Assembly: GCA_964016885.1 (NCBI GenBank)
Contig: OZ024763.1
Location: 7,378,001 to 7,442,000, forward strand
DNA length: 64,000 nt
Reading direction: 5' to 3'
Source of the DNA: Eledone cirrhosa
Taxonomy: Eukaryota
Below the pieces are notes generated by a model. It was not told the DNA's origin and did no database searches. It saw only the letters and a program-made list of their open reading frames with translations. Made by a program: the position numbers and the translations under genes. Below are positions 61-61,526 of the stretch, piece by piece (the first letter of the stretch is position 1; every line of letters begins with the position of its first letter).

Positions 61-138
61 GTAGTTCCTGGCCGAGATTGAACCAGAGACTAGGATCTTC
101 ACCTTCTCTAACACATACCATTAGCCCACAGAGACTGC
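61..138 (-). ncRNA. Two-hairpin tRNA-like putative Pol III small RNA gene (degenerate copy)
   Basis: Minus strand gcagtctctgtgggctaatggta...ggttcaatctcggccaggaactac; TATAAA at -31 (plus-strand tttata 164-169); T5 shortly downstream. Confidence 0.45.
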
Positions 139-559
139 CACAAAAGTACTATGAAAATTTATATTTATAAAGCTACTTTTCTATATCCAAGCAAACTTGA
201 TGTGGTGGCCTTCATGTCTTTTTCTATGTTATTCGCACTACCAACGATGGAGCTTTCAGAAACCCACCTTGTATTTCCAAGCATAATAGATGTTGTGGCA
301 TTCATGCCCTTCTCAGCATTATCAATACTTCGAAAGGGTCGACATTGGATTTTTATTCTTCTGGCAATTTGAGAAAATATATCTTCACTTACTTTCTCTA
401 AGGTTCATTTCATCCTACAACCCGATAATCTGCAGTGGCCTTCTTCAACTGTCATACCTCACTATTAAATTTATTGATGTCCTTCGTTAAAAATAACCTA
501 CTGTAATTCTTGCTAGAGATTCAACCCTATCACTTTATCTCACTGCTTATTCAGGGACC

Positions 560-1712
560 AAGGTCCTCAATCTCAGAGAATATTGATAAGGAGAGCAGAT
601 TGTATCCTTATTTGGTCCGTCTTTCCAGTTAACACGGTATATAAATGGTACTTTGTTGGGATTTAATACTAAACACGTGACGTTCACCGTTGTCAGCTAA
701 ACACACTGCCAGTTTGCTATCTGCAGCGGTGAAAGAAGGTCGTGTTATTTCTACATCTCACATACATTGTTTTATTCATTAGATAACAATATAGAAGATA
801 AAGAATGAATGTGAGAATGTCAGTCTTTTAAAAGTACAATTTATGATATTAAAGCAAAATCTTGAATTAACGATAGTTTGTGAAACTAAAGTTAAAATGG
901 ACGAAGCAACAATTGTATGACAAATTGTTTATTGATAAGAAGGAGAAATGATTGCATCTTCAACGGCAATACAATCTATTGAAAATCGAACACTTACAGA
1001 GACCTCATACAGGATTTTTCGGAATACATTTTGAAGAAGAGTTAAAAATAGGGAGATACATATACATGGCTAGTATATACTTTAATTATCATATTTGTAT
1101 CTTGAACGTATAAGACGCCAGCAAGTTTTAACATCGAATACTGATGTAAAATTGTGTTTTTTTGTTTCACCCACCCCCAACAAATGTGGAATATGTATCA
1201 ATTTGAATTTAAAGGTAGCTAACCATCTCACAGGAAAAGACCACAACACCAAGTCGGATTATAGGAATGATGAAATATTACTTTACCTACCTAAATACAG
1301 AAATATTAAAACTCTAGATAAATGATCTGTGTGATACTACTTAGAATATTATTTGCAGGTCTGGTCACCCGACTTCCGAAAGGAGAGAGAAGCTATTGAA
1401 GGAATCCAGAGAAGAAAAAAGCATGAAATACCAGAATTCTTGAGAAGAAAGATGTAAAAAGCCAGGAATTACGACTTTGGAGGAGATAAAGCTAAGGGGA
1501 GACACGACAGAAATATTTAAGATAATGAAAGGATTTGAAATTACAGAAGAAAATGTAAGAAGAGGACACCATTATACTGTTTATAAGATACAATGTTCTA
1601 AAGACATCAGAAAATATATATTTCTCAAAGAGATATTAGTGAATGGAATAGTTTAAATGATGGAGTAGACGACACAACAGTAAATGATTATAAAAAGATA
1701 TGACAGATGAAG
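560..1712 (+). mobile_element. Decayed CR1/L2-clade LINE reverse transcriptase and C-terminus
   Basis: Frameshifted translation gives motifs in the expected order: FDK(ES), RLSS*HGINGTLLG, CSG-EGRV (~SGVPQGSV), LEYYLQVWSPDFRKE-EAIEGIQRR, TLEEIKLRGDTTEIFKIMKG, RGHHYTVYK, DIRKYIFSQR-ISEWNSL. Confidence 0.8.
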
Positions 1713-58600: not shown

Positions 58601-61449
58601 GAGAGGTTCTCCCTTCATATCACAAATATTCCTTTCTGACTCACTGAAAACTTGTCTTGCATCATCGAGTAAAAGAGATCTAAAGAATCTGTCTGATGTT
58701 GCTATATATGGATGTAGCGACCTATAACTTGTGAGGGTGTCCTAGAGGCCCCACATTGACAGTCAGGGTGTCTAGGATACTTTGTAAAAGTTGACAGATC
58801 CCATCTCCACCCCCAGATCTCTTACAGAGAGTGAGAGAAAGGAATTGAGAAAAAGATATAGAAGAATCGACCCTAGTACTACACTGGTACTTGTTTCTAA
58901 CTACCTCGAATGGTACAATAGCGAAACCTAAACTTTGATGTACCTATATAAGTCATACCTGTTCTATATGTGATGTGCGTACATATATGTATGTAAGTGT
59001 ACCTGGCGTTGCAAGTTCGGTTTTCGTAAGTGTCTGAGAATTTTTACATGAGCAAGCATGTGTCCTGATGATTAGTCAATCGTTATTATGATGGTATATG
59101 GTATGTGCTTTTAATATATATGTATGTATATTTACATAGAAGTGAGTAAATATGAATGTATGGGTATATATAAATAAAAATGGTCTTTCTAATTGCTAAT
59201 ACTATCTATCGGTCGAAACTCCAGGTAGAAGTATGTGTGTGTGTGTGTGTGAAATCCTTGGTGCAGTCAGGTATATTTAAAAAAAAATAAATGACTTCAT
59301 TTGTAGTTCTAAATCAAATTGTTTAGAACTACAAGTCAAGTCATTCTTTTCCTTTTTACAAATATATATATATATATATATGAAAATATAATGGGAAGAG
59401 GTGAGTATTATAACTTTTATAAGAAATAAAGATCTAAAGACGAGTGATATAATTGTTATTACAGTATTCCAGAAGTAAAATATAGATCTGAAGACGAAAG
59501 AAAATTTCATCAACGAAATCGTAATGTACACCAACGAAAATATGTCTACAGAATACAGATTAGTAAAATAAAGTTGGAGCAACTAAATGAGAGGTCACTT
59601 AACTTTACATATTTATATCGTGAAAAATGTTGATCTTCAGATATTAAATTATGGATGTGATTGTTTGTCTTTCTTTAAACACAGTCTTCTTTTTAAAATT
59701 AATTTTAGATTATTCGTACCTCATCTCTGGTCTCTTTTGATGGAGTCTACCTGTCCTGTTTATTGGTTTTATTTTAAAAGTAATCCATTGGAACATCGGA
59801 TATTAAATGAAATGTTACGTAAAAGACACACCATATGTTTATTCCAGGTATTTAGAGAGATGTCCACTGACAACAAAATAATACAATAAGGAAATGCCAT
59901 CATCCAGTAAAACTTTGTAATAATCCAGTCTCGTCACACTCACCGTTTACAGTAAACAATGGTAAGAACAAACAAAAACAAGAGAACTATTCAGCAGTTA
60001 ATGAAGTGAATACATAAAATTAAAAAAAAAAACATTCCTGAATAAAATAAATATTTTACTTTCTTTTATAAAACACATTTATTAATAGGAATTAAGCACA
60101 GCATTGTAGGTTCAAATCTTACTTGCATGTATATATAGGAACCACGTTTAACAATTTACGCTGGAATGAGGTATGACATTATTGCAGACGGAGTTGTTGT
60201 AGGTCCAAATCAAGCCAAGAGCAATGAGAAAGTCTAGATTTACTTTACCTCACACATATTTCACGGTCATATGTCTATATATATATATAGACATATACAT
60301 ACATATATATATATATATATACATAGATATATATACATATGTAGACATATATACATAGATATATATACATATATATGTCGACATATATACACAGATATAT
60401 ATACATATATATGTAGACATATATACATACATACATAAATATATACATATATATATATACATATATATACATATTCTTTCCTGAGACATTCTAACCACAT
60501 GTCCATAGTATCAGAGCTGTGATCTCTCAGTTGGGAGAAGTAGCAGCTCTACCTGGAGTGACTCTCTCATCTCTGAGCTACACACTTTATCAAGTAACAT
60601 TACTCCAAAGACCCTTTCGAGGAACCCCATTTTGGCTGCTTGTATTCGCTTTTAACTCTACTAACTCAGTACTAAGTCAGTACTAACTTTAGTTAAATCT
60701 ACTAAATACCATAGTGCAGCACTGAAGCTCTAAAGTGCCATACTGTGGCACCCTAGTTCGGGAGTTCAATAGTGTGTTACTCTTGCTCCCTATTGCCCTA
60801 TACACATACATGTATATATATATATATATACACACATATATATAAACACATACATATATATATATATAAACATACATGCTTACGTATATATATATATATA
60901 TTACGTGTTGAAAATTCTATCAGTTGATGAAACAACAATATGGCATTGAAATATATATTCAACCTCAAAATTGATTTATTTTCTATTGCAGACTTCCAAT
61001 GTTATGTTTAGAATTGTTCCTGACGATGTCTTTCTAAAGATGTGTAACATGTAATAGCAATGAAACAAGTGTTGATCAAATAAATAATTTATAAACTGTT
61101 GAACTTGGTGACTTATTTCTTTGTTTTATATATATATATAGAGAGAGAGATATGTGTGTGTGTGTGTGTATGTATATATATATACGGAATTATTGAATGT
61201 TCCAATCTTGCCTATATTGATGAGAAGCTAAGAGAAAACCGAACATCTGCAACAATATTGGTTCCATATTGAAAGTAGGTTGATATATATTCATTTTCAG
61301 TGAGGTTTTACATCCGTTTTGGTGACCCAGTGGTATGTATTAGAGGTGAATGCTTTCCTGGTCGTGAGTTCGATCTGAATCAGGATATAATCTCACTAAA
61401 TCTTACATTTTTTTCTCTTATAAAATGGAAAAGTAAGACCCCCTTAATG

Positions 61450-61526
61450 TATGTCTTCATTGAAAACCAAACCAGGTCCTCCACCGTCTCTAATAACCCC
61501 CACTAGGCCACCGTAACAATAACAGC
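61450..61526 (-). ncRNA. Two-hairpin tRNA-like gene, diverged convergent partner (truncated at 29100-29134 in block 1)
   Basis: Minus strand gtggcctagtggggg...ttagagacggtggaggacctggtttggttttcaat; upstream TATA and conserved motif retained at about 61548-61602. Confidence 0.35.

Follow-up and report, generated by a model that had tools for sequence, protein, structure and literature searches.

A tandem array of tRNA-like elements lies in a 64-kb window of the Eledone cirrhosa genome (contig OZ024763.1, positions 7,378,001 to 7,442,000; the window denotes this whole stretch). The element is about 78 nt long and the window holds 15 full copies and one 5'-deleted copy. These form a real, non-random and apparently undescribed family, of a kind already known in that tRNA-derived or short interspersed element (SINE)-derived RNA polymerase III (Pol III) units amplified as tandem DNA have been reported. 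On balance, we consider it probable that the copies are tRNA-derived Pol III small-RNA genes, each predicted to give an 85-105-nt double-hairpin RNA, that undergo birth-and-death turnover and are constrained mainly at their promoters. The surrounding sequence is AT-rich repeat DNA of an animal and includes microsatellites, a SINE head and a long interspersed element (LINE) fragment. The spacers are mostly decayed repeats and the 64-kb window contains no credible protein gene.

A profile hidden Markov model (HMM) seeded with 12 copies recovered all 15 copies of the original prediction at the positions it had given, each with E <= 8e-8 in the 64-kb window. The same HMM yielded a weak 16th match (29162-29105, minus strand), representing the 3' half of the 5'-deleted copy. 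A covariance model built from 14 copies also recovers the 15, with only m61520 (= m61526) independent of model building. Individual copies differ from the consensus at 11-23 of 78 positions. Because several copies are recent duplicates with 98-99% identity, the 15 copies represent about 10-11 independent lineages. The copies and associated features are as follows.

61-138, minus strand: gene copy m138, found by HMM and covariance model; the expected partner would lie left of the window
139-223, minus strand: promoter of m138 with TATA block and -78 to -58 motif; partial second motif at 260-312
3500-3745, plus strand: upstream region of p3746 with a shared block near -250 to -180, the motif at -78 to -58 and TATA at -31
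3746-3823, plus strand: gene copy p3746, two predicted hairpins (z -2.56)
3969-4046, minus strand: gene copy m4046, the best-folding copy (z -4.65) and tail-to-tail partner of p3746
4047-4300, minus strand: upstream region of m4046; homology with the p3746 upstream region extends to about -250
7346-7423, plus strand: gene copy p7346 with full promoter at 7264-7332 and several two-sided stem changes
7507-7584, plus strand: gene copy p7507, an inner tandem copy whose promoter consists of the TATA block only
7640-7716, minus strand: gene copy m7716 (z -2.60), partner of p7507, promoter at 7730-7799
9399-9467, minus strand: orphan promoter, gene body lost; duplicate at 39655-39723
28960-29037, plus strand: gene copy p28960, the most diverged (23 differences from consensus), upstream motif degenerate
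29093-29134, minus strand: 5'-deleted copy; a deletion of about 280 bp took the promoter and 5' hairpin, with a short shared word at the junction
32502-32579, plus strand: gene copy p32502, whose linker from TATA to gene is 12 nt short
32632-32709, minus strand: gene copy m32709, partner of p32502, promoter at 32723-32793
36934-37002, plus strand: displaced full promoter of p37429, separated from it by a 361-bp insert after which about 50 bp of the TATA block are repeated
37429-37507, plus strand: gene copy p37429, found by HMM and covariance model
37603-37680, plus strand: gene copy p37603, recent duplicate of p7346
37764-37841, plus strand: gene copy p37764, recent duplicate of p7507
37897-37973, minus strand: gene copy m37973, recent duplicate of m7716
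61313-61390, plus strand: gene copy p61313, recent duplicate of p28960
61445-61526, minus strand: decayed gene copy m61526 (26.8 bits compared with 65-84 for the others), promoter at 61539-61604
490-660, minus strand: possible older relic copy with TATA-like block, B-box-like 3' part and T-run; weak, covariance-model E of only 0.06-0.15
8195-8345, 29385-29475 and 33085-33245, minus strand, and 3185-3300 and 32005-32085, plus strand: similar weak possible relics

Array architecture and spread as DNA

Self-alignment reveals a block of about 30 kb that occurs twice in the window (7303-29134 and 37560-61488), with 91-98% identity in the self-alignment and 76-98% when taken by segment. Each block contains several older units of about 3.6 kb with 65-80% identity, giving a higher-order array. 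One tail-to-tail gene pair is found per 3.6-kb unit (3746/4046, 7507/7716, 28960/29134, 32502/32709, 37764/37973 and 61313/61526), with three extra plus copies in direct tandem upstream of two pairs. The inverted arms of the p3746/m4046 pair (3654-3862 and 3930-4138) are 83% complementary. Upstream DNA is common to plus and minus copies out to about -250, which indicates that the pair is an old inverted duplication of the gene together with its promoter region. Words resembling a B box, located 190 and 330 nt upstream of plus copies, were considered as decayed tRNAs and instead align with the upstream block of minus copies. Broken pieces are also present: promoters without a gene at 9467 and 39723, one promoter displaced from its gene (36934), repeats of part of a promoter at 312 and 32905, and faint older relics. 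The array is in birth-and-death turnover at the DNA level.

Five public sequencing runs match 3560-4330, none of those listed being an RNA run, so that they have no bearing on expression; four of the five were aligned to 3000-4800. Runs X1 and X2 stem from one DNA sample and gave 718 and 802 aligned records, respectively, in which depth does not equal copy number. Up to 90 (X1) and 89 (X2) distinct contigs carry a variant letter inside the gene, and spacer contigs with 3-5 differences reach a depth of 310-510 beside contigs at a depth of 3-35. The family comprises at least many tens of variants, with spacers amplified along. Summed depth peaks over the gene and TATA block in both runs. Between 13% (X2) and 15% (X1) of aligned contigs run on into unlike sequence. 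A promoter module with its end at -87 would fit the three and two contigs that part from the alignment at this point and continue differently (404 loose ends are unlisted). At loose ends 4038 and 4044, contigs carry the family promoter followed by a clearly more diverged body with an A-box-like stretch, suggesting that the family may include subfamilies below 80% identity. Two runs from further organisms (X4 and X5) gave only 10 and 13 aligned records. Three pieces of 151-190 nt among them have at most one difference (0-1) in gene and promoter and are identical over most of the flanks; species conservation cannot be told apart here from an effect of library type or a shared origin, and we base no conclusion on these runs. 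Exact-pattern scans of metagenome contigs, with the gene motif and the TATA block, and of viral contigs gave 0 matches.

Amplification as DNA rather than by retroposition had been proposed for the family, and the copy boundaries agree with this. No A-run longer than 4 nt follows the gene in any of the 15 copies (longest 2-4 nt), and none of the 15 has a convincing target-site duplication, words shared across the gene being 4-10-nt A/T runs only. The approximately 250 bp of shared upstream DNA combined with the lack of A-tails indicates that the copies in the window spread as DNA and not as a SINE, as SINEs are defined in the accessible parts of PMC3531059, PMC4758252 and PMC10886601. The slimmest probability among the explanations we weighed is thus given to a simple SINE or SINE head (ID or DAS-I like), or to the tRNA-like part of a terminal repeat (a Helenus-like terminal-repeat retrotransposon in miniature (TRIM) or a foldback element), that was secondarily amplified. 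The pairs do form inverted repeats, the share of X1 contigs continuing into unlike sequence is compatible with dispersed copies, and the first 14 nt of a local alignment to the SINE head at 13119 (minus strand) are identical and cover the A box. This likeness is however confined to the boxes and its score of 52 compares with a best of 53 in 500 shuffles. Helenus TRIMs possess direct long terminal repeats with primer-binding site (PBS), polypurine tract (PPT) and 4-5-bp duplications according to the accessible text of PMC10886601, whereas the pairs described here are convergent and lack these features by eye, no scripted PBS or PPT search having been made.

Several other repeats lie close to the copies. 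The 361-bp insert at the start site of p37429 (37016-37376) has no terminal inverted repeat in its first and last 30 bases. A repeat with inverted ends of about 45 bp is whole at 9890-10160 and partial at 11650-11840 and 61648-61836, and one copy of it sits at the deletion that cut back the 29134 copy. A spacer block at 620-830, 8320-8520 and 29450-29660 is 70-80% alike across old units and carries a strong plus-strand TATA-like word; it may represent a minus-strand relic promoter or a separate element.

Promoter and terminator organization

A TATA block is present in all 15 copies. The TATA begins at -31 in 11 of 15 copies by script and additionally in p37603 by eye, in line with the position predicted for most copies, and is shifted in p32502 (-19, due to the linker deletion), p37429 (-29) and m61526 (-36, depending on the start chosen). 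Further upstream, a motif at -78 to -58 had been described as common to the outer copies. It is found in nine of the 15, while it is degenerate in p28960 and p61313, displaced in p37429 and absent in the three inner tandem copies. The distance from motif to TATA is 45 or 46 nt in all eight aligned promoters, an orphan promoter included. Seven of the nine motif-bearing copies, two recent duplicates being dropped, were used to count conservation by module. The blocks at -78 to -58 and -43 to -18 are off consensus in 37 of 326 cells. Spacer and linker are off in 49 of 204 (Fisher P 1.6e-4, optimistic because the limits of the blocks were drawn by eye), and the gene body is off in 153 of 780 (P 9e-4). 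Modular conservation and fixed spacing form the pattern expected from a promoter that combines a proximal sequence element (PSE) with a TATA box, making the upstream motif a candidate PSE. We take the likeness of the block near -200 to a ZNF143 or octamer site to be weak and made no use of it. The Rfam scan found no small nuclear RNA (snRNA) gene in the window for comparison of PSEs, and no mollusc PSE was found in the literature, including the accessible parts of PMC11892584.

A run of at least four T starts between +85 and +103 in 15 of 15 copies, as anticipated for an oligo-T terminator, compared with 24% of random points followed by one within 30 nt; the copies being related, these are not 15 independent trials. 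Inside the gene, ten positions that are invariant in tRNAs (U8, A14, G18, G19, G53, T54, U55, C56, R57 and A58) are kept in 137 of 140 cells. Relative to a shuffled null, the A box (16 changes vs 23.2, P 0.036), the B box (13 vs 21.9, P 0.015) and the D-like loop (4 vs 12.8, 0 of 1000) are better kept, and the T-like loop is not significantly so. Internal boxes, a TATA near -30 and a T-run terminator match the layout of hybrid-promoter Pol III genes of the tRNA-Sec type and, together with the conserved upstream motif, support the hybrid layout originally proposed.

Five recent duplicate pairs allow change in the gene body to be compared with that in the flanks. Bodies differ at 14, 1, 5, 1 and 1 of 78 sites, a sum of 22 vs 5.9 expected, with the excess confined to two pairs: 61-138/32632-32709 (14/78 vs 3.1% in the flank) and 7507-7584/37764-37841 (5/78 vs 0.8%). 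At two of the five differences between p7507 and p37764, a wobble pair in the 5' stem becomes Watson-Crick. The m138/m32709 tract may be of older ancestry, given 9-11% divergence in its -260 to -58 region as well. At active tRNA loci, mutation is 7-10 times faster and shows an excess of C>T and G>A (PMC6130373, accessible parts). The commonest changes in the family are C>T and G>A (24 and 35 of 153), which are common anywhere, and four of four tests for strand asymmetry in substitutions gave P > 0.28, meaning that there is no strand signature of transcription. Fast gene-body change is a weak hint of transcription at most.

The state of the copies is also what would be seen if they were fossils or passengers, that is, descendants of a once-functional tRNA-derived gene that decays within a macrosatellite with little or inconsequential transcription, its conservation resulting from past selection and array homogenization. 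We regard this as unlikely, although it is the most probable of the alternatives. The divergence of copies from the consensus, the poor folding of most, the decayed spacers and a stem retention near neutral all fit such decay, as do the orphan promoters, the 5'-deleted copy, the insert at a start site and the older relics. It does not account well for the modular conservation and constant spacing of motifs in lineages that have diverged by about 25%, for the T-run retained in every copy or for the majority letters of public contigs being nearer the paired form. In addition, m138 and m32709 show 0 of 44 differences in -45 to -1, yet 14 of 78 in the gene.

The best-kept parts coincide with predicted factor-binding sites and the TATA block is far deeper than the gene body in public contigs (summed depth, not copy number). 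Both observations would suit a chromatin element, with arrays of TFIIIC, TBP and Pol III landing sites serving as boundary or organizer and the RNA as a by-product. This is highly improbable in our view, and it leaves unexplained the approximately 20 new base pairs that the ancestor acquired in two outer stems (z -6.0).

Predicted fold and probable tRNA ancestry

The consensus of 10 copies is predicted to form two hairpins (1-38 and 41-76) at -43.0 kcal/mol with a z-score of -6.0 (0 of 1000 shuffles), whereas a forced cloverleaf reaches -13.7 kcal/mol and is thus 29 kcal/mol worse. The 5' end pairs with the middle and not with the 3' end, and the junction between hairpins falls where the anticodon was. 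A cloverleaf acceptor stem is lacking, with only 3-6 of 7 pairs in 14 copies. As originally stated, no anticodon arm can be drawn: none is shared among the 14 copies, and 5/5 pairs are possible in only three, at differing positions and with differing triplets. The family also matches no catalogued RNA family, ARAGORN finding 0 tRNAs in the window and none of 80 Rfam matches in the window, nor any of 15 from a scan of 3600-4200, reaching the gathering score. Where sub-threshold Rfam matches touch the copies, they are to plant-miRNA models that fit the inverted pairs. Other RNA classes were considered and rejected, namely vault RNA, Y RNA and sbRNA (no stem closing 5' and 3' ends; no such Rfam match at E <= 1 or 10), spliced-leader RNA (Sm-type word in only 1 of 15 copies), permuted tRNA (the D loop precedes the T loop) and intron-bearing tRNA (no acceptor stem).

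Across 14 copies, 79% of 432 cells pair compared with 38-45% for slid structures, and the covariation score exceeds 500 of 500 shuffles, four of the rows being recent duplicates. Pairs changed on both sides are unremarkable in number (9 vs 7.8 expected). At p3746, the majority letters of X1 and X2 re-establish or strengthen pairing for positions 8, 22, 28, 56 and 71.

Several results count against the favored reading of a Pol III small-RNA gene array. Only 3 of 12 single copies fold with z <= -2.5, and RNAalifold retains only 14 pairs at -4.8 kcal/mol. When four duplicates are dropped, leaving 10 of 14 rows for reshuffling (m61526 and the truncated 29134 copy were never in the alignment), 245 of 310 pairs are kept vs 239.0 under neutrality (P 0.11) or 237.0 with boxes fixed (P 0.04), and two-sided changes number 8 vs 5.3 (P 0.16). 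Across 13 deep pairs of copies, identity is 69-83% for the gene body, only slightly more than the 61-81% of spacers, and 70-93% for the TATA block, values that come from gap-tolerant alignment and include some non-homologous spacers. The equivalent of C61 in the B box is T in 14 of 14 copies. The conserved loop letters are at the same time the A and B boxes, so their retention cannot separate a role in DNA from one in RNA. Finally, the promoter at 9467 has stayed intact although its gene is lost, hence an intact promoter alone does not mean selection.

The original prediction therefore stands in part. Its family of tRNA-derived, DNA-amplified, uncatalogued genes with a hybrid promoter and no anticodon arm is upheld, and its two-hairpin fold applies to the consensus but not to most single copies. 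Stem conservation exceeds the neutral expectation only narrowly (P 0.04-0.11), whereas the A and B boxes and the D-like loop are better kept. The D- and T-loop letters, proposed to be kept as an RNA elbow, may equally be kept as the promoter boxes. We suggest that an ancestor was shaped into a strong predicted double hairpin and that present copies are held mainly at the promoter.

The family is likely tRNA-derived with tRNA-His as the best candidate ancestor, a lead given that the comparison was made by eye over only 20 nt. The 3' end of Aplysia tRNA-His(GUG), given in the accessible part of the PMC10886601 supplement, implies a 5' strand starting GCCGU, as in the consensus. Both also have GTG at the place of the anticodon, which is the hairpin junction here (by eye), a stretch of similar sequence following the B box, and a common 9-nt word, at positions 43-51 of the consensus. 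In contrast to tRNA-His, the family has no acceptor or anticodon stem and about three extra bases before the D arm. No full mollusc tRNA-His sequence was found in the literature. A more specific proposal, which we find somewhat more doubtful than decay as passengers, is that hundreds of genes descended from tRNA-His, with an snRNA-type promoter, encode a fixed double hairpin, the form that has been suggested as the ancestor of tRNA, whose D and T loops would meet tip to tip, within or between molecules, as an elbow without decoding or charging end. Such an RNA might be a cephalopod-specific decoy or might be cut at the old anticodon into two hairpin RNAs.

The pieces themselves could be what matters, either two hairpins of about 38 nt released by a cut at the junction (by RNase P acting on the 3' minihelix, or by RNase Z) or long double-stranded RNA from read-through of a pair that would feed siRNA or piRNA pathways. 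The junction lies at the anticodon, where the double-hairpin tRNA divides (PMC3978253, accessible parts). Convergent partners within the window exist for six of the seven minus copies, at distances of 52-145 nt in the five intact pairs that were measured, and predicted read-through folds reach -57 to -162 kcal/mol. The T-runs between partners should however stop Pol III, and partner gene bodies are only 74-76% identical in the pairs compared, giving imperfect duplexes. Hairpins of 38 nt with about 15 pairs are also short for Dicer, and overall we judge this explanation improbable.

Proposed mechanism, comparable systems and neighboring repeats

In the reading that we favor, a Pol III small-RNA gene array constrained mainly at its promoters, TFIIIC would bind the A and B boxes, TBP the TATA and a SNAPc-like factor the -78 to -58 motif. 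Pol III would start near +1 and stop at the T-run, producing a non-coding RNA of 85-105 nt. The ancestral anticodon arm would have changed in such a way that the 5' end came to pair with its left half and the 3' end with its right half. This would have locked the double-hairpin tRNA form with the D-like and T-like loops at its two tips. The resulting RNA would be neither charged nor used in decoding. By analogy with snaR and BC1, its most likely role would be that of a decoy, an abundant tRNA look-alike occupying tRNA-handling or double-stranded-RNA-binding proteins. BC1 is itself refolded into a long stem-loop. Bulk supply by many redundant copies would place selection on each copy mainly on staying transcribable and only weakly on its stems.

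The family works like snaR, the amphibian tandem repeats and, in promoter layout, BC1 and tRNA-Sec, and is a member of none. As described in the accessible parts of PMC3337139 and PMC12193147, primate snaR genes are also short A/B-box Pol III RNA genes that spread by segmental duplication with their flanks, form inverted tandem arrays and diverge fast. They are in contrast Alu/7SL-derived, about 120 nt long, expressed and protein-bound, whereas the family reported here has a probable tRNA source, an upstream motif and TATA and is known from DNA alone. In the amphibian repeats OAX, PolIII/TAN, Rana/polIII and Hy/polIII (PMC10702118, accessible parts), a tRNA-like Pol III unit is likewise amplified as tandem DNA with no matching SINE. 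Their units measure about 200-360 nt where a length is given, compared with about 3.6 kb and a tail-to-tail gene pair here. The double-hairpin fold, convergent pairs and fixed upstream promoter of our family go unmentioned in those parts. Amplification as DNA with flanks in tandem or inverted arrays, as in OAX, PolIII/TAN and snaR, is seen in our family as well.

Internal boxes plus upstream elements are shared with BC1, tRNA-Sec, 7SL, vault, EBER and BC200 genes (PMC8362101, accessible parts). Among these hybrid-promoter genes the same text ascribes PSE use only to tRNA-Sec. It also describes rodent BC1 as a tRNA-Ala derivative turned non-coding, similar to the origin proposed here, but as a single gene with extra 3' domains, whereas our family has many copies and comprises nothing beyond the tRNA-sized domain. 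The predicted fold resembles the double-hairpin tRNA form (Tanaka and Kikuchi 2001, cited in PMC3978253, accessible parts), in which two hairpins split at the anticodon carry the D and T loops at their tips. In that work the form is an alternative that real tRNAs adopt and part of a model of tRNA origin, whereas here it is the only stable predicted fold of the consensus. We found no description of such a family in the accessible cephalopod literature, where genome supplements and repeat libraries could list it as an unnamed repeat. The main text of an octopus small-RNA paper (PMC9699675) contains neither 'tRNA' nor 'polymerase III'.

If expressed, the family would represent a small RNA, undescribed so far and probably abundant, that neither miRNA-size nor poly(A) libraries capture, in a lineage whose RNA biology is under close study, as well as a natural and testable case of the double-hairpin tRNA fold. 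The -78 to -58 motif may be the PSE of the species and could then serve in a native Pol III promoter to express guide RNAs or shRNAs. In the array, mutation and selection can also be followed, as in a natural experiment, at Pol III genes on which decoding places no constraint. A silent family would be one more tRNA-derived tandem repeat.

Other repeats accompany the array. Each 30-kb block contains one 24/30/54-bp minisatellite (16063-17577 and 46467-47751) and one CT-rich array of 5-7 kb (18429-23198 and 48653-55636). A 3' fragment of a LINE reverse transcriptase, which we take to be RTE-like, lies at 14914-15333 and 45290-45709 (minus strand), with five relatives at 62-71% identity among 18 candidates. 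A tRNA-derived SINE head with canonical A and B boxes, presumably of octopus type, is located at 13080-13170 and near 43517 (minus strand).

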